From the NCBI GenBank assembly GCA_963718285.1, contig CAVQYU010000006.1, positions 94,059 to 158,058 of the forward strand: 64,000 bases of DNA, read 5' to 3'. Below are positions 36,882 through 58,176 of this stretch, one piece after another (within the stretch, counting starts at the first letter, position 1; each line of letters opens with the position of its first letter). Both the position numbers and the translations under genes were made by a program. The notes beneath the pieces were generated by a model that saw only the letters and a program-made list of their open reading frames with translations, was not told the DNA's origin and did not search any database. The stretch comes from an uncultured Chloroflexia bacterium. Lineage in GTDB: Bacteria > Chloroflexota > Limnocylindria > Limnocylindrales > CSP1-4.

Positions 36882-36926
36882 TTGACGCGCCCGCGAGCCC
36901 CGGCTAGTGTCAGGCAATCGGTTGCG
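36882..36926 (+). promoter_or_regulatory. Promoter-operator module a: TTGACG-17-TAGTGT followed by the LacI-type operator GGCAATCGGTTGCG
   Basis: -35 at 36882-36887, -10 at 36905-36910, operator at 36913-36926. It lies 34 nt upstream of the MFS start. Confidence 0.6.
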
Positions 36927-38225: not shown

Positions 38226-38363
38226 GGACGAGCGCTAGGCCTTCGCCCCGAAGTCGACCTCGCCGGTCGCGACCGTGCCGGCCGTCCTGCCCGGGGCCTT
38301 GTGGTAGGTCCAGTACAGGTTCGTGTGGGTGCTGCTCGGAGACACGGTACCCCGCCCCGAGCT

Positions 38364-39568
38364 CAGACGGCCTGGAACTCCGCCGGCAGGTGCTTGAAGG
38401 CGCGGTCGGTCGGGGTGCTGATCCGCTCCGTCGGCCCGCTGATCGCATATTCGGGGATCCGGGCGAAGAGCTCCTCGAACGCGATCCGGCCCTCGAGCCG
38501 GGCAAGCGGCGCCCCGATGCAATGGTGAATGCCTTCGCCGAAGGTGAGGTGGCGGAGCGGCTCGCGGGTGATGTCGAGGCGATCCGGGTCGGTCCAGCGC
38601 CGGTCATCACGGCCGGCTGACAGCCCAGATCAGGCTGACGTGGGCGCCCTCCGGGATCGTCTGCCCGTCGACATCGACATCCTGGACCGTCGTCCGGAGC
38701 AGCGTCTGGATCGGCGGGTCGAAGCGCAGCAGCTCCTCGACGGCCGCGGGCAGGCGCTCCGGTTCGGTCCGCATCAGGGCGAGCTGATCGGGATTGCTGG
38801 CGAGATGGTAGAGCGAGTTGGAGATCAGGCCGGCGGTCGTGGTGATCCCGGCCACGAAGAGCAGGACGGAGCTGCCCAGGATCTCGTCGTTGCTGAGCAG
38901 GCCATCCTTCTCGGCCTGGACCATCGTGCTGAGGAGGTCCTCGCGTGGGTGGATCCGCCGCGCCGCTGCGGCCTCCCCGACGTACGCCTGGAGCTTGTCG
39001 CGGGCGTGGAGCGTGCTGGCGGGCATCGCCGCCTGCCCGGGCACGCGATGGAGCAGCTGGTCGAACCACTCGAGGAGCATCGCGTGGTCCTCGTCCGGGA
39101 AGCCCAGCCAGGTGCACACCATCTGGCCGGGCAGCGGACGGGCCAGGTCCTGGGCAAAGTCCGCCCGGCCTGACTCGGCGAACTGGTCGACGAGGGCGCG
39201 CGCCACGACCCGGACCGGCGGCTCGAAGCGCTCCCGGACGGCCGTCGGGTTGAACGCGTCCCTGAAGACCTTGCGCAGGCGGGTATGGATCGGCGGGTCC
39301 ACGCCGGCGAGGTCGCCGGCCGGCTGGAAGAGCTGGTACGTGTCGTCGTGGTCGTTGCCCTCGCGGCTCGAGTACGTCTGCCAGTCGCGGGCGACCCGCT
39401 GGACGTCCTCGAAGCGCGAGAAGCGCCCAGACGTCCCGTCCGAGGTGGTGGTAGAGGGGCGCCTCGTCGCGCAGCCGGCGATAACCGGGGTACGGGTCCT
39501 CCAGGGGCAGGAGCGGGATCCCACGGAATGGGTCCGGGCGGGGAGACCTGGGGCTCGGCGTCGATCAT
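38364..39568 (-). CDS. Cytochrome P450 (apparent frameshifts near 39440 and 38610)
   Basis: I-helix LLFVAGITTT, EELLRF (ExxR) and the heme loop FGEGIHHCIGAPLA (hand-translated C-part, stop at 38364) are present. The ATG at 39568 has GAGGTG 7 nt upstream. Confidence 0.8.
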
Positions 39569-39597
39569 CGTCGTTCACCTCGGCGTGGGACCGGGCG

Positions 39598-39611
39598 TGC
39601 AATCGTTCGCA
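39598..39611. promoter_or_regulatory. LacI-type operator b: TGCAATCGTTCGCA
   Basis: A 14-mer palindrome-like site centred on CG. It lies in the 99-nt divergent spacer between the P450 gene (-) and the TIM-barrel gene (+). It has one mismatch to the TGCAAnCGnTTGCA pattern. Confidence 0.5.
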
Positions 39612-41431: not shown

Positions 41432-44060
41432 GTCGGTGCGCCTCCCCGGGTCGATTGGGCCAAGCGGTCGCGGAGGGTGGCTCCGCTGGCCGCGATTCGG
41501 GCCACCATGCGCGAGCGCAGGGCAGGGTCGTCGATCGCCGCGATCGTGGCCAGCCAGCGGGCCGTCCCGTCGATCACCGCCAGGATCGCTTCGGCGTCGC
41601 CGGCGGCAATCAGGGGCCGGTCCAGGACCTCGACGTAGACCGGCGAGGTGTGGGCGGCCATGCTCGTGCCGAAGGCCGAGTGGATCTGGTAGTCGCTCCT
41701 GGAGCGAGCCGCGATCCAGGCCCCGGCGTCGACCGCCAGCGAGGTCTCCAGGCGGAGGTCGGTGGCCGCGGCCGCGAGCGTGCTCGGCGGCCACGACCCG
41801 GCCATTGACGACCAGCTCGACCGCATTGACCAGCGGCTGGGCGGCGCGCGCCCGGACCGTCACCGCGAGATGGCCGCCGCCGGCCGGCAGGCTGATCACG
41901 GCACCCGGCTCCTGGCCGTCCACGAGCAGCTCGAGGATCGGCCCCGAGGTCGCGAACGTCCGGCCGGCCCGGATCGCGGCGGCCCAGGCTCGAACGAGGG
42001 CGCCCGACAGCGTCCGGCCCGCGTCGAGCCCGTGGTCCAGGTGGGCGTACGTGCGCATCGCCCCGAGGGCAACCTCGGCCGACATCTTGTCGGTTCCGCC
42101 CACGACCGGCAGGCGGTAGCCGCAGTTGAGGAAGCGGTACCACTCGAGGATCGAGGGATTGTCCAGGCCGGGCGCGAAGACCTGCATCTCGACGGCGTCG
42201 ATCAGACCGGCCACGACAGCCGCCGCGATCTCGGCAAAGGGCAGCGGAAAGTGAGCGCCGACGACCAGCCCGCCGGCGGCGTGGCACCGATCGGCCCAGT
42301 CGGCCAGCAGCTCGCTCACCGGCTGGCCGATGCGTCCCTCTGGCGCGCCGCCCGAGGCGAGCGGCAGGACCGGCGGGCGGGCGCCGAGGAGGGCCAGATG
42401 GCCAAGCATGTTCTGCCGGTTCTCGGTACCGACCATCACCGTGTGGCGCCCGGCCGGATCCTGCTGCCCGCCCCAGGCCAGGTCCGGCACGTTGATGAAG
42501 TGATCGCCCAGCTGAGTCGCCAGGACGTGGACGATGTCGACGTCCTCGGCGGCTGCCTGCAGCAGCGCGGTCGACGGAGCCAGGAAGTGAACGTGCGAGT
42601 CCGAGCTGCGCCAGCCGGAAGGACGCAGGTCGATCGGGTGGTCGATCGTGAACGCCAGCTTGTTCGTGCCGGGCTCGACCTGGACCGTCGTGCCGGACCG
42701 GCCGGTGATCGAAGCCCTTGACCAGCTCGACCGCGATCGGCCCGACCGGCAGGTCGATCTGGAACTCGCCGGGAACATAGGCGTAGGTGTCCGTGCCCAG
42801 GATCAGGCCTGCCCCGCTGTCCTCGAAGATGCCCGGGTTGACCTCGTCCCGGTGGCCCAGCGGGGGCAGGTAGCGGCCGGCCTCGTCCAGGAAGCGGACC
42901 CGGGCCGGCGTCGTGGCGCCGCCGGCGGTGACCCGAACGTTGACCCGGACGTCCGGACGGGCCAGCTGCCGGATCGAAGCTCCAGCGGCCAGGGCCACCT
43001 CCGCGCCTGCGTCGAGCTCGGCCGCCGTCACGACTGATGAGCCGAACGTGATCCGGGCGTCGGGCGCGAGGCTGAGATCCAGGATCGAGTCACCCGTCGC
43101 AGCGTCCCCGGAAGCCGGCGGCTGGCCCCAGCCGATCGGGCTGGACCGCGGGGTGGCCGGCAGCCGGCCGGCCGGCTGCGACCGGATCGCGCTGCCGAGG
43201 TCGACCCCGGGCAACGCTCCGTTGGGCCCGCTCAGCAGGAACTGTCGCCGGCCTGCCGCGACAAGCGGGTTGGCCCGGCCGGCGAACAGGGTCAGCCCTG
43301 CGATCACCACGTCGGTGCCCGGGCGGCCCTCTCCCAGCGAGCCAATCCGCAGGGCCACGGGCGCCACGCCCGGCTCGAGGGCGATGGCGTGGAGCCACAG
43401 GGTCAGGTCATTGGTCGGGCTCGGGATGTAGTCGACCGCGCCCGACTGGCCCGCCGCCCACGCCCCGGGCAGGGTCGTGAGGGGTCCCGCCTGGCCGGCC
43501 GGGGCGGTGCGGCCGTAGCCCTGGTCCGGGAAGGGCCCGCGCCAGTCGAGGACCTGGTCGGCCTGGTGACCGATCGCCTCGAACGGCAGGAAGCCCCAGC
43601 CGATGATCCCATCGTCGATCTGGACCCGACGCTGGATCTCGATCGCCTGGCTGCGACCGTCGCCGAAGACGAGCTCGTAGCGGGCCAGCGCCTCGCCCGT
43701 GGGCAGGACCCAGCCCACGGGCATTCCGGCGGGCGCCCTCCCCCAGGCTCGCGCCAGCTGTCCGAGAAGTGGGCCACGACGAGGTGGCTCGCCGAGACGG
43801 CGCCCGCGCCGGCGCCGGCCAGGTCGAGCTCCAGGCTCTGGCCGGCCTCGGCCAGGACCCAGCGCCGCCCGGCCGACCGCCGGCCGAGTGAAAAGGGCAG
43901 CCCGCGCAGGATCACGTCGCCCTGGGGCAAGCGGGCGAAGGCCGGGGCATAGAGCGGATCGAACCGGCCGGCCAGGTCGGGGTCGGTGGCGTTCCAGCCG
44001 GCCGACGAGGTCGATCGGCCAGGCCAGCGGGCTCGCCGAGGCCAACCCGGGCTGGGTCAT
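41428..44060 (-). CDS. Large (~875 aa) PHP/CehA-McbA-like metallohydrolase with an uncharacterised N-terminal half, paralog 1 (at least 4 apparent frameshifts)
   Basis: It is collinear with the intact paralog at 51391..53988: GLPFSLG..HLVVAHFSD, YELVFGDG, IGWGFLPF, LDWRGPFP, LTLWLHAIALEPG, RYLPPLGHRDEVNPG, SDSHVHFLAPST, GTENRQNMLGHLALLG, GGTDKMSAEV and AAHTSPVYVEV. Fragments are spread over four frames. Confidence 0.7.
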
Positions 44061-44083: not shown

Positions 44084-44130
44084 TTGACGCGGCATGAGCG
44101 GCGATGATACCGTCGTTGCAATCGGTTGCG
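44084..44130 (+). promoter_or_regulatory. Promoter-operator module c: TTGACG-18-TACCGT followed by the operator TGCAATCGGTTGCG, shared with a divergent candidate promoter
   Basis: -35 at 44084-44089, -10 at 44108-44113, operator at 44117-44130. SD GGGAGGG and the iolD GTG follow directly. On the minus strand, TTGCGC (44133-44128)-18-TATCAT (44109-44104) faces paralog 1. Confidence 0.6.
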
Positions 44131-44144
44131 CAAGGGAGGGCACG

Positions 44145-46031
44145 GTGAACTCAGTACGGCTGACCGTGGGCCAGGCGGTCGTCCGGTTCTGCGCCGCCCA
44201 GGACGTCGAACGGGATGGTCGTGAGCACCGGTTCATCGCCGGCTTCTGGGGCATCTTCGGTCACGGTAACGTGGCCGGCCTGGGCCAGGCCCTCGAGGAG
44301 CTCGGTGACGAGCTGCGGATGCCGCTCTACCGGCCCCAGAACGAGCAGGCCCAGGTCCACATCGCGGCCGCCTTCGCCAAGCACCACAACCGGCTCCAGG
44401 CCTACGCCTGCACCTCATCGGTCGGCCCGGGCGCCCTGAACATGGTCACCGGGGCCGCCGGCGCAACGGTCAATCGAATCCCGGTCCTGCTCTTCCCCAG
44501 CGACTACTTCGCCAATCGAGCGCCCGATCCGGTCCTCCAGCAGATCGAGCATCCGGTCGAGCGCGACGTCAGCGTCAACGACGCGTTCCGGCCGGTGTCG
44601 CGTTTCTTCGACCGGATCTCCCGCCCCGAGCAGCTCCTGGCTTCCCTGCCTGCCGCCTTCCGGGTCCTGACCGACCCGGTCGAGACCGGTGCCGTGACCG
44701 TATCCCTGCCCGAGGACGTCCAGGCCGAGGCCTACGATTGGCCCCTGAGCTTCTTCGAGCGGCGGACCTGGCGGGTTCGTCGCCCCGTGCCCCAGGCCGC
44801 CGACCTGGCCGACGCGGTCCGCCTGATCAGCCAGGCCAAGGCGCCCCTGCTCGTGACCGGCGGCGGCACGATCTATGCCGAGGCCACGCCCGAGCTCGAT
44901 GCCTTCGCCAGCCAGTTCGGGATCCCGGTCGTGGAGACCCAGGCCGGCAAGGGCGCCCTGCCCTGGAGCCACCCGCTGAACGTGGGTCCCGGCGGCACGA
45001 ACGGCAGCCTGGCCGCGAACCGCCTGTCGCGCGAGGCCGACCTGGTCATCTGTGTCGGCACCCGGATGGGCGACTTCGTGACCGCCTCGCAGTCGGCCTT
45101 CCAGAATCCGGAGGTCGCCTTCGTCGGCCTGAACATCGCCCCGTTCGATGCCCACAAGCTGCGGGCCACGGCCATCACCGCGGACGCCCGGGAAGGGCTC
45201 CGGGCCCTCCGGGCCGAGCTCGCCGCCGCCGGCTATGCAGGGTCATCCGCGGCGTATCGCGAGCGCGCCGCCGGCCTCAAGCAGGAGTGGGACGGGATCG
45301 TCAGCGGCCTGCGCGCCGTCAATGGCGAGCCGGGCGACCTGGGCCAGGCAGAGGTGATCGGCCTGGTCAATGACGCCGTTGGTGGCCGGGCCACGGTCAT
45401 CTGTGCGGCGGGCAGCCTGCCCGGCGACCTGTTGCGCCTGTGGCGGGTCGACGACCCGAAGGCCTATCACGTCGAGTACGGCTTCTCGTGCATGGGCTAC
45501 GAGATCGCGGCCGGCCTGGGCGTGCGCCTGGCCGAGCCCGACCGGGACGTCGTGGTCATGGTCGGCGACGGGTCCTACCTGATGATGAACTCGGAGATCG
45601 TGACTGCCGTGGCCGAGGGCCTCAAGCTCACGATCGTGGTCCTCGACAACCACGGCTTCCAGTGCATCCTGGCCCTCCAGCGGATGGTCGGGGTGCCCGA
45701 CTTTGCCAACGAGCTGCGCTTCCGCGACCCGGCCACCAACCGGCTGACCGGGCCCTACGTACCGATCGACTTCCGCCAGCATGCCGAGGCGATGGGCGCC
45801 CTGGGCCTCCTGGCCCGGACGCCGGACGAGCTTCGGGCGGCCCTCGACCAGGCCCGTGCCAGCGACCGGATCACGGTCATCCTCGTGCCGACCGAGCCCG
45901 AGAAGCGGGTCACCGGCTTCGAGACGTGGTGGGACGTGCCGGTGGCCGAGGTGAGCGGACAGGCCGGCGTGCGCACGGCCCGGGCCGCCTACGAAGTCGC
46001 CCTCGGCCGGCAACGCACCGACCTTCGCTGA
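44145..46031 (+). CDS. iolD: 3D-(3,5/4)-trihydroxycyclohexane-1,2-dione acylhydrolase (IolD-type ThDP enzyme)
   Basis: The ORF is intact. VRLTVGQAVVRF..FIAGFWGIFGHGNVAGLGQALEE is typical of the IolD N-terminus. The ThDP motif is GDGSYLMMNSEIVTA...VLDNHGF. The GTG 44145 start sits behind GGGAGGG; the tracked ORF begins at 44094. Confidence 0.85.
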   Translation: MNSVRLTVGQAVVRFCAAQDVERDGREHRFIAGFWGIFGHGNVAGLGQALEELGDELRMPLYRPQNEQAQVHIAAAFAKHHNRLQAYACTSSVGPGALNMVTGAAGATVNRIPVLLFPSDYFANRAPDPVLQQIEHPVERDVSVNDAFRPVSRFFDRISRPEQLLASLPAAFRVLTDPVETGAVTVSLPEDVQAEAYDWPLSFFERRTWRVRRPVPQAADLADAVRLISQAKAPLLVTGGGTIYAEATPELDAFASQFGIPVVETQAGKGALPWSHPLNVGPGGTNGSLAANRLSREADLVICVGTRMGDFVTASQSAFQNPEVAFVGLNIAPFDAHKLRATAITADAREGLRALRAELAAAGYAGSSAAYRERAAGLKQEWDGIVSGLRAVNGEPGDLGQAEVIGLVNDAVGGRATVICAAGSLPGDLLRLWRVDDPKAYHVEYGFSCMGYEIAAGLGVRLAEPDRDVVVMVGDGSYLMMNSEIVTAVAEGLKLTIVVLDNHGFQCILALQRMVGVPDFANELRFRDPATNRLTGPYVPIDFRQHAEAMGALGLLARTPDELRAALDQARASDRITVILVPTEPEKRVTGFETWWDVPVAEVSGQAGVRTARAAYEVALGRQRTDLR

Positions 46032-46068: not shown

Positions 46069-47307
46069 ATGGCAGGACCTGGGGTCGAGCTGATTGGGGC
46101 CGAAGAGACCGCCCACGTGCTGGAGGTCATGTCCAGCGGCTTCCTGAGCCGCTACGGCCCGTCCGACAATCCGGCCTTCGGCGCCAAGGTCCACAAGGTC
46201 GAGCTCGCGGTGGCCAAGCTGGCCGGCGTGCGCTACGGCCTGGGCTTGCACGGCGGTGGCTCGGCCGGGCTGTGGGTCACCCTGCTCGGCCTGGGCATCG
46301 GCGCCGGCGACGAGGTGATCGTGCCCGGCTTCACCTTCGTGGCCTCGATCTCGGCGATTGTCTACACCGGGGCGACACCCGTCCTGGCCGAGGTCGACCA
46401 GTCGTTCGACCTGGACCCGGTCGACGTCGAGGCCCGGATCACCCCCCGCACGGCGGCCATCCTCGTCGTCCACATGCTGGGCGGACCAGCCCGCATGACG
46501 GAGCTCAAGGCGATTGCCGACAAGCACGGGATCCCGCTCGTCGAGGACTGTGCCCAGGCGTTCGGCGCGACCTACCAGGGCATCGGGGTGGGCGGCATCG
46601 GCGCCGCCGGCGTGTACAGCTTCAACGAGTACAAGACGATCACCTGCGGCGATGGCGGCATGATCGTGACCGATGACGAGGCGCTGTACGAGCGCTGCTT
46701 CGCGATGCATGACCAGGGCCATGCTCCGGACCGGCTCGAGTCGAAGTACGCCCCGCGCCCGTTCCTGGGCATGAACTTCCGGATGACCGAGCTGTCCGGG
46801 GCGGTCCTGCTCGGGCAGCTGGGCAAGCTCGACCAGATCACCTCGCATCTGCGGGCCAACAAGGCGATCGTCCAGGAGTTCCTCGAGGAAGCGCCCGAGA
46901 TCGACTTCCGGACCCTGCCCGATCCGGCCGGCGACCTGGCCACCCACCTGGTCGTGGTCCTGCCTTCGGCCGAGATCGCCGGCAAGGTGGCCGACGAGGT
47001 CGGCTCGATCACCCTGTCCGAGTCGGGCTGGCACGTCTACAGCAAGATGAACCACCTGCTCGAGCGGCGGACGGTCAACGGCAAGGGCTGCCCCTTCGAC
47101 TGCCAGACGCCGGGCCACTCGCACGGCGACTACCGGATCGGGATGCTGCCCCAGACGGACGCGTTGCTCGAGCGCTCGATCAGCATCGGGATCGGAGTCC
47201 GCGACGCCAACCTGGCGCCGTTCGGATTGCGGATGCGGGACGGGGCCGACGAGGCCCGCTCGGTGGCCCTGACCTTTCGCGACGCCGTCAACAAGCACCT
47301 GGCCTGA
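46069..47307 (+). CDS. DegT/DnrJ/EryC1/StrS-family PLP aminotransferase
   Basis: Intact 412-aa ORF. Blocks are DEVIVPGFTFVAS, LVEDCAQAFG and the PLP-lysine block YSFNEYKTITCGDGG. Confidence 0.85.
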   Translation: MAGPGVELIGAEETAHVLEVMSSGFLSRYGPSDNPAFGAKVHKVELAVAKLAGVRYGLGLHGGGSAGLWVTLLGLGIGAGDEVIVPGFTFVASISAIVYTGATPVLAEVDQSFDLDPVDVEARITPRTAAILVVHMLGGPARMTELKAIADKHGIPLVEDCAQAFGATYQGIGVGGIGAAGVYSFNEYKTITCGDGGMIVTDDEALYERCFAMHDQGHAPDRLESKYAPRPFLGMNFRMTELSGAVLLGQLGKLDQITSHLRANKAIVQEFLEEAPEIDFRTLPDPAGDLATHLVVVLPSAEIAGKVADEVGSITLSESGWHVYSKMNHLLERRTVNGKGCPFDCQTPGHSHGDYRIGMLPQTDALLERSISIGIGVRDANLAPFGLRMRDGADEARSVALTFRDAVNKHLA

Positions 47308-49147: not shown

Positions 49148-49190
49148 CGCGGGCGAGGGCCCCTGCTACGGTCGAATGCAATCGGTTGCC
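49144..49190 (+). promoter_or_regulatory. Promoter-operator module d: TTGACG-17-TACGGT followed by the operator TGCAATCGGTTGCC, upstream of the LacI gene
   Basis: -35 at 49144-49149 (overlapping the stop of the preceding gene), -10 at 49167-49172, operator at 49177-49190. Confidence 0.6.
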
Positions 49191-49224: not shown

Positions 49225-50302
49225 TTGGTAGCCAGCGGATACGTCCCCACGCCGCGCCGCCGAGTCCTGCTCAAGGACGTCGCCCAGGCGGCCAGCGTCT
49301 CCGGCTCGACCGCATCACGGGCCCTGGCCGACGATCCCCGGATCAGCCTGGCCACCCGGCTCAGCGTCAAGGCGGCTGCCGCCGAGCTCAACTACGTGCC
49401 CAACGCGGCCGCCCGCAGCCTGCGCATGAAGCACACCCGGACCCTGGGCCTGCTCGATCCCCGATTTGCGCGACCCGGTCCACGGCCAGGTCGCCTCGGG
49501 CTTCGAGGAAGAGGCGCGCCGGAGTGGCTATTGCGTGATCATGGTCGCCGGTGAGAACGAGCCGGTGCGCGAGCGCCTCGGCCTCAAGATCTTCGCCGAG
49601 CACGGCGCCGACGGGGTGGCGATCGTGTCCAGCGCGATCTCGCCGCGGGAGGCGCGCGAGCGCGTCGATCCCGACCGGTTGATCCTGGTCCAGCCGGATC
49701 ATCCCAGCCTGCCCCGGCGCGAGGGCAGCCTCCCGCCCGGGGTCATCCTGACCGACGACGCCGCCGGCCTGCGCGCTGCGGTCAACCACCTGGTCGACAA
49801 CGGCTACCGCCGGATCGCGTATGTCGAGGGCGGCGGTGGCGCGTCGAACACAGTTCGGTCCGAGGCCGTGGCGTCGACCTTGCGCAGCCGGGGGGTCAAG
49901 ATCGCCGTGCGCACCTTTGCCGCCACGGGCGACACCTGGCGCGACCCGGGGGAGCTGGCGGCCGCGATCGCGGCCGACCTGCCCGAGGCGCTCGTGTGCT
50001 ACGACGACAAGCTGGCCCTGGCCCTGATGGACGAGCTGCGCAAGCTCCGGGTGCGGGTGCCCGAGGACATCGGGATCGTGGGCTTCGATGGGATCCCCTT
50101 CGCCGCCCTGGCCAACCCGCGCCTGACCACCGTGGCCACCCCGGCCGGGGAGATGGGCCGCCTGGCGGCCGCCTCGCTGATCCGGACGATCCAGGTCGGC
50201 GCCCGCTCGGAGGCGATCCTCCTGGCGCCCGAGCTGATCGTGCGCGAAAGCACCCGGACCCTGCCCTCGCCGGCGGGCCGTCGCGGCGGCACCGCTGGAT
50301 GA
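49225..50302 (+). CDS. LacI-family transcriptional regulator (apparent frameshift near 49460; start uncertain)
   Basis: The HTH is LLKDVAQAASVSGSTASRALADDPRIS..NYVPNAAARSLR. The periplasmic-binding-like core in ORF 49466..50302 has GADGVAIVS, VCYDDKLALALMDELR, VPEDIGIVGFDGIP and LTTV. Confidence 0.8.
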
Positions 50303-51390: not shown

Positions 51391-53988
51391 TCACGGCCTT
51401 CCGCTCATCCGGCGCTCGAGGGCGGCCAGGCTGGCATCGAAGAACGCCAGCATCCGCTCCCGCTCGGCCGGCTCGGCGATCGCCGCCAGCTCGGCCACCC
51501 AGGTCCGGGCGCCCACGATGATCTGCTCGACGGCCGCCCCGTCGCCGGGGGGCGGGATCAGGGGCGCATCCTGGACTTCGACGTAGACCGCCGACGTATG
51601 GGCGGCCATCGCCGTCGTGAATGCGGACTGCAGGTCGACCCGGCTGCGAACCCGGCCGGCGATCCAGCTGCCGGCCCGGACGTCGATCGACTCGTCCAGA
51701 CCAAGCTCGGTCGCTCCCAGCGCGCCGCCCGTGGACGCCACGACCCGGCCGTTCACGACCAGCTCGAGCTCATTGAGCACGGCCTGGGCGGACCGTGCCC
51801 GGAGGCTGACCTCGAGGCGGCCCGCCGACGGCAGCTGGATGACCGCGCCCGGTTCGCGCCCTTCGACCGAGAGCTCGAGCAGGGGGCCGGAGCTGACGAA
51901 CGTCCGGCCGGCCCGTACGGAGGCCGCCCAGCCGGCGAACGTCAACGGCTCGTCGGATAGCAGGTGGGTGTAGGCCCGCACCGCGCCGATCGGTACCTCA
52001 GCCGTCATCTTGTCCGTGCCGCCAACGAGCGGCAGCCGATAGCCGAGGTTGAGGAAGCGGTACCACTCCAGGACCGACGGGTCGTCCAGCCCCGGCGACA
52101 AGGCCTGGGTCTCGACGGCGTCGATCCGGCCACTCACGATGTCGGCTGCGATCTCGGCGTAGGGCAGCGGAAAGTGGGCCGCGACCACGAGCCCGCCGGC
52201 GGCCCGGCAGCAGTCGGCCCAATCGGCCAGGAGGACCTCCAGGGCACCGGCCAGCCGGCCCTCGGGCGGCCCGCCGCTGGCCAGCGGGTTCGTCGGGCGG
52301 CCGGCGCCCAGGAGAGCCAGATGGCCCAGCTGGTTCTGTCGATTCTCGGTCCCGACCACGATGATCCGGCGGCCTTCCGGGTCGGCCATCGAGCCCCATG
52401 GCAGGTCGGTCACGTTGGTGAACAGGTCGCCCCACTGGGCCGCGAGCAGGTTGACCAGGTCGACGTCCTCCGCGGCCGCCTGGAGGAGGGCCGTCGAGGG
52501 GGCGAGGAAGTGGACGTGGCTGTCGGCGCTGATCCAGCGCCCAGCGCCGGCCAGTCCCAGCCTGGGTGCGAGCGGCAGCTCGAGGCGGCGGGTCGAGGGC
52601 TCCACCCGGATCGTGGTGGCGATGGGTGGCCGATCGAAGCCGGTCACGACCTCGACCTCGACCTCCCCCAGCGGCAGGTCGATCTCGAACCGGCCCGGGA
52701 CGTAGGCATAGGTCGAACCGCCCAGGATCAGGTCGCCGCCGGTGTCCTCGAAGAAGCCCGGATTGACCTCGTCCCGGTGGCCCCGGGGCGGCAGGTAGCG
52801 GCCGTCGGGGGTGGCGAACTGGACCCGGGCGGGCAGGTGCTCGCCGGTCAGCCGGTCGACGAGCTCGACCTCGACCGGAATGCGGGCGGCGGGCAGGAGC
52901 TCGATCGACCTGTGCCCGCCACGTTCCGCGATCGGCCGTCCCTCGACCAGATCCCGGGCGGCCACCGGCCAATCGCCGAGGCTGACCGTGGCGTCGGGCG
53001 CGAAGGCGAGGTCGACGATCACGCCCTCGCCCGCTCCCCCGCCTGGCTCGATCTCCGGATCGAGCCAGGGCGTGCCCCAGCCGATGATTCGCGAGGCGCT
53101 CGCCGACGGCCCGAGCCTGGCCGGGCGGCGGACCGGCCGGCTGCGAATGACCGTGCCCAGGTCGATCCCGGGTGGCTCACCCGCCGTCCCTTCCAGCCGG
53201 ACCTGCCCGCGTGGCGACCGGACGAGCGGGCTCGCCGAACCGTTGAACACGGTCACCGCGGCCACGATCAGGTCGCTGCCCGGCCGGCCGCCGGAGCGTG
53301 GCTCGAGCTGCAGCTCGACCGGCTCGGCTCCGTCCTCCAGCGCGATGGCATGGAGCCACAGCAGGAGGTCGTCGGTGCCGCTCGGCACGAAGTCGGAGAC
53401 GCCGGTCAGGTCAGTTCCGTAGCTGCCCGGGATGATCGTGAGGGTGCCCGACTGGCCGGTTGGCGCGTAGCGGCCCGGGAACTGGGCCGGGTGCGGCCCG
53501 CGCCAATCGAGGACCTCCGTCTCGCGATGGCTGATCGCTGCGAACGCTCCCGAGCCCCAGCCGAGCAGGCCGTCGTTGACCTCGAATCGGCGCCGGATCG
53601 GGCGGGTCGTCCGGCGGCCGCTCCGCTCGACCACGGTGTACTCGGCCAGGACCTCGCCGACCGGCACGACGTGGCCCAGGGCCAGGCCCGCCGGCCGCCG
53701 GCCGTCATCGTCGCGCCAGGCATCGGCCAGGTGGGCGATCACGACATGGCTGACCCGGCCACCCCCATCGAGCTTGACCGAGACCGGCCGGTCGACCAGG
53801 ATCCAGCGCCGGCCGTCGCTGGGCCCCAGCTCGAACGGCAGGCCATGGAACACCTGCCGCCCGGCGGGCAGCCGGGCCAGGCCCCCGGCATAGCCCGGAT
53901 GGAACCGGGCGACGAGCTCCAGCTCGGTCGCGTTGCGGGTCGATTCGAGGTCGACCGGCCGGCCCAGGCGGCTCGCCCGAAGGGTCAC
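51391..53988 (-). CDS. Large (865 aa) PHP/CehA-McbA-like metallohydrolase with an uncharacterised N-terminal half, paralog 2 (intact)
   Basis: Single intact ORF with no signal peptide. Residues ~1-470 have no motif I recognise. The C-half has ADSHVHFLAPST, GTENRQNQLGHLALLG, VVAAHFPLP, GGTDKMTAEV and a tail with AAHTSAVYVEV, typical of CehA/McbA-type PHP-fold hydrolases. Confidence 0.8.
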   Translation of the reverse strand: MTLRASRLGRPVDLESTRNATELELVARFHPGYAGGLARLPAGRQVFHGLPFELGPSDGRRWILVDRPVSVKLDGGGRVSHVVIAHLADAWRDDDGRRPAGLALGHVVPVGEVLAEYTVVERSGRRTTRPIRRRFEVNDGLLGWGSGAFAAISHRETEVLDWRGPHPAQFPGRYAPTGQSGTLTIIPGSYGTDLTGVSDFVPSGTDDLLLWLHAIALEDGAEPVELQLEPRSGGRPGSDLIVAAVTVFNGSASPLVRSPRGQVRLEGTAGEPPGIDLGTVIRSRPVRRPARLGPSASASRIIGWGTPWLDPEIEPGGGAGEGVIVDLAFAPDATVSLGDWPVAARDLVEGRPIAERGGHRSIELLPAARIPVEVELVDRLTGEHLPARVQFATPDGRYLPPRGHRDEVNPGFFEDTGGDLILGGSTYAYVPGRFEIDLPLGEVEVEVVTGFDRPPIATTIRVEPSTRRLELPLAPRLGLAGAGRWISADSHVHFLAPSTALLQAAAEDVDLVNLLAAQWGDLFTNVTDLPWGSMADPEGRRIIVVGTENRQNQLGHLALLGAGRPTNPLASGGPPEGRLAGALEVLLADWADCCRAAGGLVVAAHFPLPYAEIAADIVSGRIDAVETQALSPGLDDPSVLEWYRFLNLGYRLPLVGGTDKMTAEVPIGAVRAYTHLLSDEPLTFAGWAASVRAGRTFVSSGPLLELSVEGREPGAVIQLPSAGRLEVSLRARSAQAVLNELELVVNGRVVASTGGALGATELGLDESIDVRAGSWIAGRVRSRVDLQSAFTTAMAAHTSAVYVEVQDAPLIPPPGDGAAVEQIIVGARTWVAELAAIAEPAERERMLAFFDASLAALERRMSGRP

Positions 53989-54002: not shown

Positions 54003-54047
54003 TTGACGGGTCATGGGCCGGACGCTAGCATCGTACAAACGGTTGCA
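54003..54047 (+). promoter_or_regulatory. Promoter-operator module e: TTGACG-17-TAGCAT followed by the operator TACAAACGGTTGCA, shared with a divergent candidate promoter
   Basis: -35 at 54003-54008, -10 at 54026-54031, operator at 54034-54047. On the minus strand, TTGTGC (54050-54045)-17-TAGCGT (54027-54022) faces paralog 2. Confidence 0.6.
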
Positions 54048-54092: not shown

Positions 54093-55184
54093 TTGAACTC
54101 CTTGCCTGACTCAACGCCTGCCATAGAATTGCGCCATGCCACGAAGCGGTACGGCGACGCTACCGCCCTCGATGACGTCTCGATGGTCATCCAGCCGGGC
54201 GAGTTCTTCTGCCTGCTGGGCCCGTCCGGCTGCGGCAAGACCACGACCCTCAACCTGATCGGTGGCTTCCTGCCGCTGACGTCGGGTGACCTGCTGATCG
54301 AGGGCCGCACGGTCAACGACCTGCCGCCTCACAAGCGCAATGTGAACACGGTCTTCCAGAACTACGCCCTCTTCCCGCACATGACCGTGGCCCAGAATGT
54401 CGCGTTCGGCCTGCGCATGGAGAAGCTGTCCAAGGCCGACATCAGCCAGCGCACCGGCGAGTACCTGGAGCTGGTCGGGCTGAGCGGCCTGACCGGTCGC
54501 CTGCCGTCCCAGATGTCCGGTGGACAGCAGCAGCGGGTCGCCCTGGCTCGTGCGCTGGCCAAGCGGCCGGCGGTGCTCCTCCTCGATGAGCCCCTGGGGG
54601 CCCTCGACCTGAAGCTGCGCAAGCAGATGCAGACCGAGCTGGCCCGGATCCACCGCCAGGTCGGCACGACCTTCGTCTTCGTCACCCACGATCAGGAAGA
54701 AGCGCTGTCGATGGCGACCCGGATCGCCATCATGTCCAACGGCACCGTCCTCCAACAGGGCTCGCCCCGGGAGGTCTACGATCGGCCCGCCAATCGGTTC
54801 GTGGCCGATTTCGTGGGCGACACGAACTTCGTGGTGGGTACCGTCCGTCGCGACGGCGACTCGGCCGTCTTCGATGTCGGCAGCTCGACGGTGGAGGTGC
54901 AGAGGGACGCCGAGGCGGGGCCGGCCACATTGATGATCCGGCCCGAGTTCCTGGGCCTCCGGCAACGGGACTCGGTCGATGCCGCGCCGGGCCTGCCGGG
55001 GCGGGTTGTCAACGTCGCCTTTCTGGGCAATCACACAAGGATCACGGTCGCCACGGCGGCGGGAGACATGGTCGTCGTGAGGCCGCATGGGACAAGAGAT
55101 TCGACCGCAGACACGCAGCGTGAGTTGGGTGAGGAGGTTTGCGTATGGTGGCGGATCGAAAACGCCGCACTGATCCGGGAGTAG
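54093..55184 (+). CDS. ABC transporter ATP-binding protein (PotA/spermidine-putrescine import type)
   Basis: Walker A is GPSGCGKTT, the signature is MSGGQQQRVALARAL and Walker B is LLLDEPLGALD. A TOBE-like C-terminus is present. The true start may be ATG 54062 (see findings). Confidence 0.9.
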   Translation: MNSLPDSTPAIELRHATKRYGDATALDDVSMVIQPGEFFCLLGPSGCGKTTTLNLIGGFLPLTSGDLLIEGRTVNDLPPHKRNVNTVFQNYALFPHMTVAQNVAFGLRMEKLSKADISQRTGEYLELVGLSGLTGRLPSQMSGGQQQRVALARALAKRPAVLLLDEPLGALDLKLRKQMQTELARIHRQVGTTFVFVTHDQEEALSMATRIAIMSNGTVLQQGSPREVYDRPANRFVADFVGDTNFVVGTVRRDGDSAVFDVGSSTVEVQRDAEAGPATLMIRPEFLGLRQRDSVDAAPGLPGRVVNVAFLGNHTRITVATAAGDMVVVRPHGTRDSTADTQRELGEEVCVWWRIENAALIRE

Positions 55185-55208
55185 CCACACCAACTGGAGG
55201 AGCACGGA

Positions 55209-56393
55209 ATGGCTGATTTCAACCAGCAGCTCGGTCGGCGAGAGTTCCTGAGACTCGCCGCGGCGACCGGAGGCACCGTCGGACTGGCGGCCTTCCTGGC
55301 CGCCTGCGGCGCAACCGCCGCGACAGCGCCCCCGGCGACCGCCGGACCCACCGCCGCCCCGGCCAGCGCCGGCGCGGCACCTTCGGCGGCGGCCACGCCC
55401 GGGCCGACCGGCACCTTCAACTGGCTGACCTGGGGCGACCACTGGTACCAGGCCGAGATGGACAAGATCGCGGCCGATATCGGGATCAAGGCCAACATCA
55501 CCAGCTTCAGCGACAACATCGACGCCTACACCAAGATCCAGCAGGTCGGCGGCCAGGTTGATCTGGTCTCCGGCGACGCCCTGTGGGTGCCCCACTACTA
55601 CCAGAGCCAGCTGGTCGACGCGTTCGACATCAACTCGCTGAAGGTCGCGAGCCAGCTGTACTCGGTGGCCCGCGCCTTCGACATCTGGACCAGCCCGGCG
55701 GGCTATCTGGGTTATCCGAACGGCTGGGCGCCGATCCAGATCACCTACGACGCGGCCCACGTGACCTCGGGCGCCGATTCCTGGCAGCTCCTCTTGGACC
55801 CCAAGTACAAGAAGCGGGTCGTGGTCGAGGACCAGCCGGTCGAGGTCATGGCCTACATGGGCAAGGCCGCCGGCGTCAAGGATCCGTACAACATGACCGA
55901 CGCCGAGATCGCCTCGGCAAAGGCGCTCCTCGTCCAGCTCAAGCCGAACATCCTGCGGCTCGCCCCGCAGGCCACCGACACCGTTGCGGCGCTCAAGAAC
56001 GGCGAGGCCTGGATCGCCACGATCAACCTCGGCGCCGACACCGCGGTCATGGACCAGGGCGGCCCGAAGCTGACCACGTTCACCCCCAAGGAAGGCTCCA
56101 TCGGCTGGATGGACAGCGAGATGCTCGTCCACGGCGGGGCCAATCAGAACCTGCTCATGCCCTTCCTCGAGGTCCACGAGCAGGCCGAATATGTCGCGGC
56201 CAACTTCATGATCAACCGGCGGCCCCTGTTCAATGAGGCGGCCTACAAGCTGCTCATCAACCAGGGCCAGCAGGAGCTTGCCGATCACCTGCTCTACAAC
56301 AAGCCCGAGACGGTCAACACGATGACCCTCAAGGGCCCCGGTAGCTCGACCCAGGCCGTCATCGCCGCGTTCAACGACGTCTTCGGCTCGTAG
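55209..56393 (+). CDS. PotD/PotF-like extracellular solute-binding protein, Tat signal plus lipobox
   Basis: The N-terminus is RREFLRLAAATGGTVGLAAFLAACG, followed by an Ala/Pro linker and a type 2 periplasmic-binding fold (family 1 SBP). Confidence 0.85.
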   Translation: MADFNQQLGRREFLRLAAATGGTVGLAAFLAACGATAATAPPATAGPTAAPASAGAAPSAAATPGPTGTFNWLTWGDHWYQAEMDKIAADIGIKANITSFSDNIDAYTKIQQVGGQVDLVSGDALWVPHYYQSQLVDAFDINSLKVASQLYSVARAFDIWTSPAGYLGYPNGWAPIQITYDAAHVTSGADSWQLLLDPKYKKRVVVEDQPVEVMAYMGKAAGVKDPYNMTDAEIASAKALLVQLKPNILRLAPQATDTVAALKNGEAWIATINLGADTAVMDQGGPKLTTFTPKEGSIGWMDSEMLVHGGANQNLLMPFLEVHEQAEYVAANFMINRRPLFNEAAYKLLINQGQQELADHLLYNKPETVNTMTLKGPGSSTQAVIAAFNDVFGS

Positions 56394-56417
56394 GATCGGC
56401 GTAACCCATTCCCTGAC

Positions 56418-57335
56418 ATGACCGTAGCTTCCGACGGCGGGGCCCCCCTGGCCCCGTCCGCCGGGTCCTCATCGGGACTCGCCCGACGATTCGGCCGGGC
56501 TCTGCCAGCCCTGCCGGGTCTGGGCGTGCTCCTGTTCCTGTTCCTGGTCCCAATGGCGATCATGTTCGTGTTCAGCTTCTGGCGCACGAACAACGACTTC
56601 CGGGTCGTGCCGGACTGGAACCTCGGGAACTACGCCCGGTTCTTCGTCGAGGGGACGTACCTCCGGACGTTTCTCAAGACGCTGATCATGGGCGGCCTCG
56701 TCACCGTCACGGCACTCGCGATCGGACTGCCGTTCGCCTACTTCCTCGTGCGCTACACGGGCAAGGTGACCCAGCGAGTGATCCTCCTGTTGGTGATCGT
56801 TCCGTTCTGGACCAGCTACCTGGTCCGGGTCTACGCCTGGCAGGCGATCCTCGGCGAACACGGCGCGCTCAACCAGGTCCTCATGGGGATCGGGCTGATC
56901 AAGGTGCCCTCGGACCTGTTCAACTACGACGACCCGGGCGTGTATGTCGTCCTGACCTACATCTACTTCCCGTTCGCCCTGCTGGCCCTGTATGCCTCGC
57001 TGGAGAAGTTCGACTTCACCCAGCTGAACGCGGCCCAGGACCTCGGGGCCCGGCCGAGCCAGGCCTTCCGGCACATCCTCCTGCCCCAGATCCGGGCGGG
57101 GATCATCACCGCCTGCATCTTCGTGTTCATCCCGATCCTCGGTGAGTTCCTCACCCCGACCCTGATCGGCGGCGCCCAGAGCAGCCTGATCGCGAACCTT
57201 GTCGTGAACTACCTGCGCCAGGCCCAGTTCGCGGAAGGCGCCGCCCTGGCGATCATCATTGCGGTCTTCGTGACCGTGGTCATGATCGTGTTCCGCAAGT
57301 CATTCCGGGTCGAGGACGTGGTGACCAGTGGCTAG
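56418..57335 (+). CDS. ABC transporter permease (PotB-like)
   Basis: Intact 305-aa ORF with 6 TM helices and the EAA-type loop LNAAQDLGARPSQAFRHILLPQ. Confidence 0.85.
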   Translation: MTVASDGGAPLAPSAGSSSGLARRFGRALPALPGLGVLLFLFLVPMAIMFVFSFWRTNNDFRVVPDWNLGNYARFFVEGTYLRTFLKTLIMGGLVTVTALAIGLPFAYFLVRYTGKVTQRVILLLVIVPFWTSYLVRVYAWQAILGEHGALNQVLMGIGLIKVPSDLFNYDDPGVYVVLTYIYFPFALLALYASLEKFDFTQLNAAQDLGARPSQAFRHILLPQIRAGIITACIFVFIPILGEFLTPTLIGGAQSSLIANLVVNYLRQAQFAEGAALAIIIAVFVTVVMIVFRKSFRVEDVVTSG

Positions 57336-58176
57336 AGGAACCAGCCCGCTCGAGACCATGCCGGTCAGCCGCTACGCCCGGCAGACTCGCTGGTCCCTGA
57401 TGATCCTGGCCGGGGCCGTGCTGGCCTTCCTGTACCTGCCGATCGCGATGCTCATCCTGTTCTCGTTCGAGGAGGCCGCGACGCCGGGCCTGCCGATCAC
57501 CGGGCTGACACTGCACTGGTACCAGGTGCTCGCGGCTGACACCTCGATCCAGTCGGCCCTCCTGACCTCGATTGAGGTCGCGATCGCCGTGACGATCGTG
57601 GCCTCGATCGTGGGCACGATGGTCGCCTTCCCGCTCGTCCGCGGCGGCGTGCGCGCCCCCGGGTCGCTCCGGCTCCTGTTCACCCTGCCGATCATGATCC
57701 CCGGGTTCCTGATCGGGATCGGACTGCTGATCTTCTTCCGCCAGGCGCTCCACCTCCAGCTCGGCCTGTACACGGTGGTCGCCGGCCACCTCGTCTTCAC
57801 CATCCCATTCGTGGTCCTGATCGTGGCTGCCCGGCTCCAGGGCTTCGATCGCCGCCTCGAATGGGCCGCCGCCGATCTCGGAGCGAGTCCGTGGCGCACA
57901 TTGCGCTACATCGTGCTGCCGCTGATCGCGCCGGCGATCCTGGCGGGTGCGCTCCTGTGCGTCACCCTGTCGATCGACGAGTTCGTGATCACGTTCTTCC
58001 TGATCGGCCCGCAGCAGACCCTGCCGCTGTACATCTACACCCAGATCAAGTTCGGGGTGACGCCCGAGGTCAACGCGATCGCCACCGTGATCCTGGTCGT
58101 GTCGTTGTCTACGGTCTTGATCGGCTCACTGCTGCTGACGGGCAGCCGCCGGCTGCGCCGACCCCGGCCGCAATGA
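57328..58176 (+). CDS. ABC transporter permease (PotC-like)
   Basis: Intact 282-aa ORF with 6 TM helices and the EAA-type loop EWAAADLGASPWRTLRYIVLPL. It overlaps the upstream gene by 8 nt. Confidence 0.85.
   Translation: MARGTSPLETMPVSRYARQTRWSLMILAGAVLAFLYLPIAMLILFSFEEAATPGLPITGLTLHWYQVLAADTSIQSALLTSIEVAIAVTIVASIVGTMVAFPLVRGGVRAPGSLRLLFTLPIMIPGFLIGIGLLIFFRQALHLQLGLYTVVAGHLVFTIPFVVLIVAARLQGFDRRLEWAAADLGASPWRTLRYIVLPLIAPAILAGALLCVTLSIDEFVITFFLIGPQQTLPLYIYTQIKFGVTPEVNAIATVILVVSLSTVLIGSLLLTGSRRLRRPRPQ

Follow-up and report, generated by a model that had tools for sequence, protein, structure and literature searches.

To our knowledge, no described locus for the catabolism of myo-inositol (iol) or of rhizopine/scyllo-inosamine (moc) includes a hydrolase of the CehA/McbA type, and CehA and McbA themselves are pesticide-degrading enzymes that hydrolyse carbamates. 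Here we describe a 64,000-nucleotide stretch of DNA from an uncultured bacterium of the Limnocylindrales (Chloroflexota; assembly GCA_963718285.1, contig CAVQYU010000006.1, positions 94,059 to 158,058; hereafter the window), which encodes such a hydrolase of 865 amino acids (aa) on its minus strand at 51391..53988 (hereafter the target). In its architecture the target is an uncharacterised variant of a known family of hydrolases. It lies in a conserved, unusual inositol-type regulon, which is best explained as LacI-controlled catabolism of an imported amine-bearing cyclitol- or sugar-type compound. For the target itself we see about an even chance that it is a co-regulated cytoplasmic hydrolase, which acts on the imported compound, or on a very early intermediate, and unmasks it for a DegT-family aminotransferase and Iol-type enzymes.

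The family assignment is based on the C-terminal half of the protein, which an earlier note on this DNA had described as a PHP/CehA-like metallohydrolase fused to an N-terminal module of about 470 aa. The NCBIfam model NF038032 (CehA_McbA_metalo) matches aa 484-804 (51577..52539, minus strand) over its entire length (model positions 1-315 of 315; E 4.8e-38, 131.3 bits against a curated cut-off of 80 bits), and because this match starts at aa 484 the proposed module boundary is right. It is the only NCBIfam match of the target, and none of the Iol equivalog models (IolA-J, IolM/N/O) matched. Nine candidate metal ligands (D489, H491, H493, E548, H556, H605, E626, D659 and H797), which include an HxH motif on strand 1 and, after it, ligands of the types Glu, His, His, Asp and His, are invariant across 40 aligned homologs and nearly invariant down to 23% identity. 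Each of them aligns with an identical residue of McbA, a characterised carbaryl (N-methylcarbamate) hydrolase, likewise in the profile comparison with hhalign. All nine are therefore kept in a proper alignment, and the CehA/McbA part of the earlier description is borne out.

The PHP part of the label is less firm. Membership in the PHP superfamily is weakly suggested by a structural match of the catalytic part to EndoQ (7k30), which Foldseek returned with E 4.5e-4, probability 1.0 and a template modelling (TM) score of 0.33 normalised to the target, and which we regard as a weak match. The Pfam PHP model (PF02811) matched neither the target (E <=1) nor 47 family members (E <=0.1), and Pfam as a whole gave no match of any kind to the target (E <=1) or to these 47 members. 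Searches of PDB by sequence (phmmer) or with a family profile (hmmsearch) gave no meaningful match to the target, and Foldseek against PDB with the full-length model (mean predicted local distance difference test score, pLDDT, 77; predicted TM score, pTM, 0.69) returned only EndoQ and generic Ig-like sandwiches. In the predicted structure the catalytic barrel spans aa 484-702 and is followed by an inserted beta-sandwich (aa 703-790) placed before the last His, and by a return strand (about aa 795-805) that bears H797. The motif AAHTSAVYVEV, which had been called terminal, is this strand (aa 795-805) and is succeeded by a helical hairpin of about 60 aa (aa 805-865, with the stop codon 51391..51576, minus strand; modelled as two helices, aa 814-833 and 840-862).

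The target is an intact single open reading frame (ORF) with a codon-position composition typical of real genes in a window of about 71% G+C (G+C of third positions 0.91, of second positions 0.53), as the earlier note had supposed. Its GTG start codon is plausible because homologs align from residues 1-5 onward. Inspection of residues 1-40 revealed no hydrophobic signal-like stretch, in agreement with the predicted absence of a signal peptide. The motifs previously read in the hydrolase half (ADSHVHF, GTENRQNQLGHLALLG, AAHFPLP, GGTDKM and AAHTSAVYVEV) are all present in the protein, and so are the N-terminal blocks GLPFELG, VVIAHLADAW, GWGSGAFAAISH, LDWRGPHP, LLLWLHAIALEDG and RYLPPRGHRDEVNPGFFED.

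No motif had been assigned to the N-terminal half. At the level of sequence this holds, as no Pfam, NCBIfam or PDB sequence match was obtained, but from structure this half can be partly assigned. A separate model of aa 1-480, built from a more diverse alignment (pLDDT 87, pTM 0.86), divides this half into three parts. The first (D1, aa 1-290; 53119..53988, minus strand) is a beta-rich, unclassified domain with the invariant motifs IRRRFE (R132-E136), GWG (143-145) and DWRGP (161-165). Its best domain-sized structural match in a Foldseek search of PDB is AziU3/U2 (7wuw; E 1.2e-5, probability 1.0, target-normalised TM 0.61-0.63, root-mean-square deviation (rmsd) 7.6 Å, 15% identity). A family-profile search of all PDB sequences (E <=10) did not return 7wuw. 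We treat this likeness as a lead at the fold level, in which homology is not established. The second part (D2, aa 291-369; 52882..53118, minus strand) is a variable linker with a small beta domain. The third (D3, aa 370-483; 52540..52881, minus strand) is a carboxypeptidase-regulatory/transthyretin-like beta-sandwich according to its Foldseek matches 3mn8, 1qmu and 2nsm (probability 1.0, rmsd about 4 Å). It carries a conserved loop, PPxGHRxEVNPGxFED (aa 400-415), of which H404, N409, E414 and D415 are nearly invariant even among relatives at 23-36% identity. Pilin and CnaB matches of the N-terminal model are generic beta-sandwich noise (rmsd >16 Å), and a Foldseek search against viral structures, which gave only generic beta-sandwich and tail-fibre matches, was likewise dismissed. 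The structural search of the N-terminal half on its own thus yielded no well-characterised domain of known substrate.

Mean identity among homologs is 58% in D1, 61% in D3 and 79% in the barrel, with D2 the least conserved part (39%), a pattern which indicates constraint on the N-terminal module. When 1.84 billion cluster representatives were searched with aa 1-480, 485 relatives came out, and among the matches listed all 33 representatives of at least 800 aa possess D1, D3 and the hydrolase domain. The shorter relatives mostly resemble contig-end fragments; a few of at least 500 aa without the hydrolase domain could be other architectures. Similarity to McbA begins only at aa 428 of the target (hhalign probability 98.8), so that the N-terminal 430 aa or so are specific to this long subfamily.

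Full-length homologs at 54-87% identity number in the hundreds and come nearly all from metagenome-assembled genomes (MAGs) of Limnocylindrales and other Chloroflexota, where they are labelled 'CehA/McbA family metallohydrolase' or hypothetical. A sister subfamily, 31-34% identical over the full length, occurs in Bradyrhizobium, Mesorhizobium, Ensifer, Variovorax, Paraburkholderia, Thermomicrobiales and Trueperaceae. Its genes adjoin transporters, with a pyridoxal phosphate (PLP)-dependent aminotransferase adjacent or within about 10 kb in 3 of 8 contexts, and also stand beside genes for sugar-acid enzymes (MR_MLE, dihydrodipicolinate synthase (DHDPS)-like proteins and GH88). Two of these relatives, at 31-34% identity, are located on rhizobial plasmids, Bradyrhizobium p4_1 (L066) and Mesorhizobium pMspAR10a (L067), both beside transporters. 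One of the plasmid contexts has major facilitator superfamily (MFS), LacI, GH88 and DHDPS-like genes, the other a PotA-type ATP-binding cassette importer together with a serine hydrolase and a glutamine-synthetase-like gene; each looks like an opine-type catabolic island. Genes for Ni/Co transporters adjoin or lie near the hydrolase gene in Paraburkholderia (NicO) and Ensifer (HupE/UreJ), at 10747-11874 of L068 and 5986-6579 of L072, which hints at a Ni or Co cofactor. A search of the literature, within the library available to it, found no paper on either the long subfamily or its sister subfamily.

The genes around the target provide the context for its interpretation. Divergent from it, across a spacer of 104 bp from the target start, lies a PotABCD-like ATP-binding cassette (ABC) importer assigned by domain models (ATPase, SBP_bac_6 binding protein and two permeases; 54093..58176, plus strand), whose binding protein (55209-56393) is closest in PDB to PotD/PotF-type proteins. 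The importer operon continues downstream of the permeases with genes for an F420-type luciferase-like monooxygenase (LLM), an IolM-like Zn-dependent alcohol dehydrogenase, an IolE-like TIM barrel and a transaldolase-like protein. On the other side a Gfo/Idh/MocA (IolG-like) gene converges on the target, with 30 bp between the two stop codons. These divergent and convergent neighbours leave the target the sole gene of its minus-strand unit, as had been claimed; a scan found no terminator-like site around it. This flank further holds iolD (44094..46031, plus strand; equivalog TIGR04377, 889.6 bits against a cut-off of 715), the DegT-family aminotransferase gene (46069..47307, plus strand), eamA, a TIM-barrel gene and the LacI-family regulator gene (lacI; 49228..50302, plus strand). 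Beyond these follow a paralog of the target (paralog B; 41458..44060, minus strand, about 50-64% aa identity) and another TIM-barrel gene.

The gene order is conserved across 65 loci. Partners within 10 kb were counted at the 49 loci whose upstream sequence extends over at least 8 kb, where DegT is the steadiest (44 of 49), followed by LacI (41), the binding protein (33) and IolD (27). In compact single-copy clusters the hydrolase stays together with the importer, LacI and DegT, and in some of them a TIM-barrel gene follows. The linkage of the target to DegT, iolD and a PotABCD-like importer, for which the earlier note had asked that orthologs be examined, is thus conserved. In most relatives iolJ-like, iolB and iolC genes are located between degT and eamA (16552-19444 in L002, 13657-15535 in L004), and some relatives possess a split transketolase gene between the IolG-like gene and lacI. 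A search of the window found no iolB, iolC, iolJ or transketolase gene, and these are likewise absent from the cluster position in the Candidatus Limnocylindrales MAG L001, which is 89.9% identical at the nucleotide level to positions 41386-63975 of the window.

Common control of these units is suggested by a palindromic LacI-type operator with a central CG, TACAAACGGTTGCA (minus strand TGCAACCGTTTGTA; 54034..54047), in the spacer that separates the target from the ABC ATPase gene. For the motif TGCAAnCGnTTGCA the window has 5 sites, where chance alone would give 0.93. Further copies lie about 40 bp upstream of lacI (49177..49190), at a position kept in relatives, and between paralog B and iolD (44117..44130), likewise conserved in relatives; the motif search also gave an operator-like copy at the start of a cytochrome P450 gene (39598..39611) and a weaker copy at 36913. 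The same 14-mer, with at most 2 mismatches, is present in all 19 orthologous Limnocylindrales spacers, which shows that the operator in the spacer shared with the importer operon, proposed earlier from the window only, is real. Thirteen of 14 further loci have a match (none was found in L012), and in these the motif occurs only at the same intergenic positions of the regulon. Taken together, the comparative evidence for a LacI-type regulon is strong, while binding of LacI to the operator and its release by an effector are predicted. A sigma-70-like promoter of the importer operon (TTGACG, 17-nt spacer, TAGCAT; 54003..54031, plus strand; a consensus match only) ends 2 bp before the operator, which the target's own promoter likely shares. 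The copy at 44117-44130 falls within the first codons of iolD as its ORF is called from 44094; residue 22 is where the alignment of the family model begins, and translation probably starts near 44157 instead.

We propose the following course of events for this regulon. On the appearance of the substrate or a derivative, the repressor would release the importer, target, lacI and iolD/paralog B units, and the importer would take up a conjugated, i.e., masked, compound. The 865-aa enzyme, in relatives together with its paralog, would then cleave a hydrolysable bond and expose a free amine or carbonyl-bearing core, to be processed by DegT, the IolG/IolM-like dehydrogenases, the TIM-barrel enzymes and IolD. 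The bond would most likely be of the acyl type (amide, carbamate or ester). We favour this type because CehA and McbA, the sole characterised relatives, hydrolyse carbamates, and because both subfamilies are repeatedly found beside amine-type importers and PLP aminotransferases. The D3 loop (H404, N409, E414, D415) and the arginine motif of D1 (R132-R134, E136) may close over the metal site and set the substrate specificity.

Several observations weigh against this proposal. The conserved loops of D1 and D3 have low confidence in the full-length model, which bears on their proposed contact with the active site. PHP-fold enzymes are mostly phosphoesterases, so the bond may be of another type. 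The DegT protein matches KdnA best in PDB (5k8b, 258 bits) and the scyllo-inosose and 2-deoxy-scyllo-inosose aminotransferases with only about 142-148 bits. KdnA is the 8-amino-3,8-dideoxy-octulosonate transaminase, which acts on the terminal aldehyde of a free sugar acid. As DegT is far closer to KdnA than to the inosose aminotransferases, the aminocyclitol reading is not secure; the amine may be off the cyclitol ring, and the aminated carbon may be the terminal carbon of an open-chain sugar acid instead of a ring carbon. On the regulatory side, a simple scan called no sigma-70-like promoter for the target strand, and lacI is split in this window by a 1-nt insertion near 49456, with its helix-turn-helix and ligand-binding parts in different frames. 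Because of this frameshift, co-induction of target and importer is uncertain in this particular genome: the insertion is either a sequence error or a sign that the regulon is derepressed in this organism, and if it is true the regulon would be expressed constitutively here. Finally, the literature search found no biochemical evidence for any member of the long subfamily.

It is also conceivable, but in our view rather unlikely, that the target represents a new class of enzyme, in which the AziU-like domain and the conserved beta-sandwich loop act jointly with a metal centre of the PHP type, perhaps loaded with Ni or Co, in an undescribed unmasking reaction. Through such an enzyme, an abundant soil conjugate of an aminated cyclitol or sugar would be broken down by an unknown pathway, present in the widespread, uncultured Limnocylindrales and, in variant forms, plasmid-borne in rhizobia.

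Among the alternatives to acyl-type unmasking, a phosphoesterase or sulfoesterase survives best, although we consider it unlikely. The PHP-like centre would in this case work ahead of the Iol-type enzymes and strip a phosphate or sulfate ester from the imported cyclitol or sugar, which might be an inositol phosphate or an inosamine phosphate. EndoQ, the only solved structure that significantly matches the catalytic part, is a PHP nuclease, and the characterised PHP enzymes HisJ, YcdX and TrpH are phosphoesterases. The invariant Arg-Arg-Arg-x-Glu motif in D1 would suit such a substrate, as would the match of its fold to AziU3/U2, which in a 2022 report is said to bind a sulfate ester. Some members of the SBP_bac_6 family, such as AfuA and PhnS, moreover bind phosphorylated ligands. 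The best matches of the binding protein of this importer, however, are polyamine binders of the PotD/PotF type, the steady DegT partner suggests that an amine and not a phosphate is the defining group of the substrate, and the characterised enzymes nearest in sequence are the carbamate hydrolases CehA and McbA.

A second alternative, which we judge quite unlikely, places the target later in the pathway. Its substrate would there be a product of the dehydrogenases, of IolD or of DegT, and its reaction, for instance, the opening of a lactam or lactone or the cleavage of a C-C or C-N bond. The position of paralog B, invariably ahead of a xylose-isomerase-like TIM-barrel gene and divergent from iolD-degT, is in congruence with a later step. 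So are the KdnA-like DegT, which suggests open-chain aldehyde or amine intermediates able to cyclise, and the sugar-acid enzymes adjoining the sister subfamily. By contrast, the partner of the target (paralog A) is the importer promoter and not a pathway enzyme, classical Iol chemistry does not require such a step, and we know of no relative with lactam- or lactone-opening or C-C/C-N-cleaving activity. A xenobiotic carbamate-pesticide hydrolase in the manner of CehA and McbA, for which the common NF038032 domain and ligands could be cited, is highly improbable and was rejected as a carbaryl hydrolase, since identity to McbA is just 26-27% and confined to aa 428-809, the architecture differs with an N-terminal module unrelated to that of McbA, and the target is chromosomal, off mobile elements and vertically conserved in Limnocylindrales with fixed synteny.

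The lacI insertion is not the only frameshift in this part of the window. Paralog B displays three isolated 1-nt indels relative to L001 (at 41778, 42692 and about 43729), and its tblastn pieces lie in three frames. In relatives both paralogs are intact and about 14-15 kb apart, so the broken copy could be a pseudogene or an assembly error. The cytochrome P450 gene (about 38300-39602, minus strand) is likewise frameshifted, with the heme motif FGEGIHHCIG off-frame from an N-terminal ORF of 331 aa. In total at least 5 frameshifts were observed between 38.3 and 49.5 kb; the 12 genes at 49.5-62.3 kb showed none.

Limnocylindrales are abundant in soil and freshwater and largely uncultured. Every sampled genome bearing the target gene keeps it, often as two paralogs, in a repressor-controlled uptake and inositol-type cluster, of which the hydrolase is the one component without a known role in inositol or inosamine catabolism. 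Identification of its substrate would name the nutrient targeted by the regulon and provide the first function and structure for several hundred proteins of about 870 aa, including the members on rhizobial plasmids near transporters. It would furthermore reveal the natural chemistry from which the pesticide-degrading CehA and McbA were recruited.

The comparison with these known systems shows likeness in parts and divergence in the whole. With McbA the target has in common the catalytic domain of about 320 aa with its inserted beta-sandwich and the nine aligned ligands, and in CehA/McbA as in the target a beta-sandwich lies ahead of the catalytic domain. Yet the hhalign pairing is limited to aa 428-809 of the target and aa 334-701 of McbA, the N-terminal 430 aa or so of the target lack a detectable relation to residues 1-333 of McbA, and the full-length architecture of CehA/McbA is not shared. 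The target has no signal-like N-terminus. The carbaryl hydrolase genes examined are plasmid-borne beside IS6100 and Tn3 transposases, whereas the target gene is part of a chromosome and of a conserved inositol-type regulon. With the PHP phosphoesterases, represented by EndoQ, the target has the HxH motif in common, along with a weak match at the fold level. The target differs from them in the large beta-sandwich before the last His, in the missing Pfam PHP and PDB sequence or profile match, and in its nearest characterised relatives, which cleave carbamates and not phosphoesters. AziU3/U2, which forms the aziridine in azinomycin biosynthesis, consists of two subunits of about 200 aa each that make up a free heterodimer, while D1 is a single domain fused to a hydrolase.

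Like the iol and moc loci, the cluster combines IolD with IolG-, IolE- and IolM-like genes, a repressor and a binding-protein-dependent importer, and the clusters of relatives add IolB, IolC and IolJ as in iol loci. The aminotransferase suggests an aminated substrate, as for rhizopine in moc loci. In contrast to both, the importer is of the PotD type instead of the ribose-binding-protein type, the aminotransferase is KdnA-like, and F420-type LLM and transaldolase-like genes are also part of the cluster.

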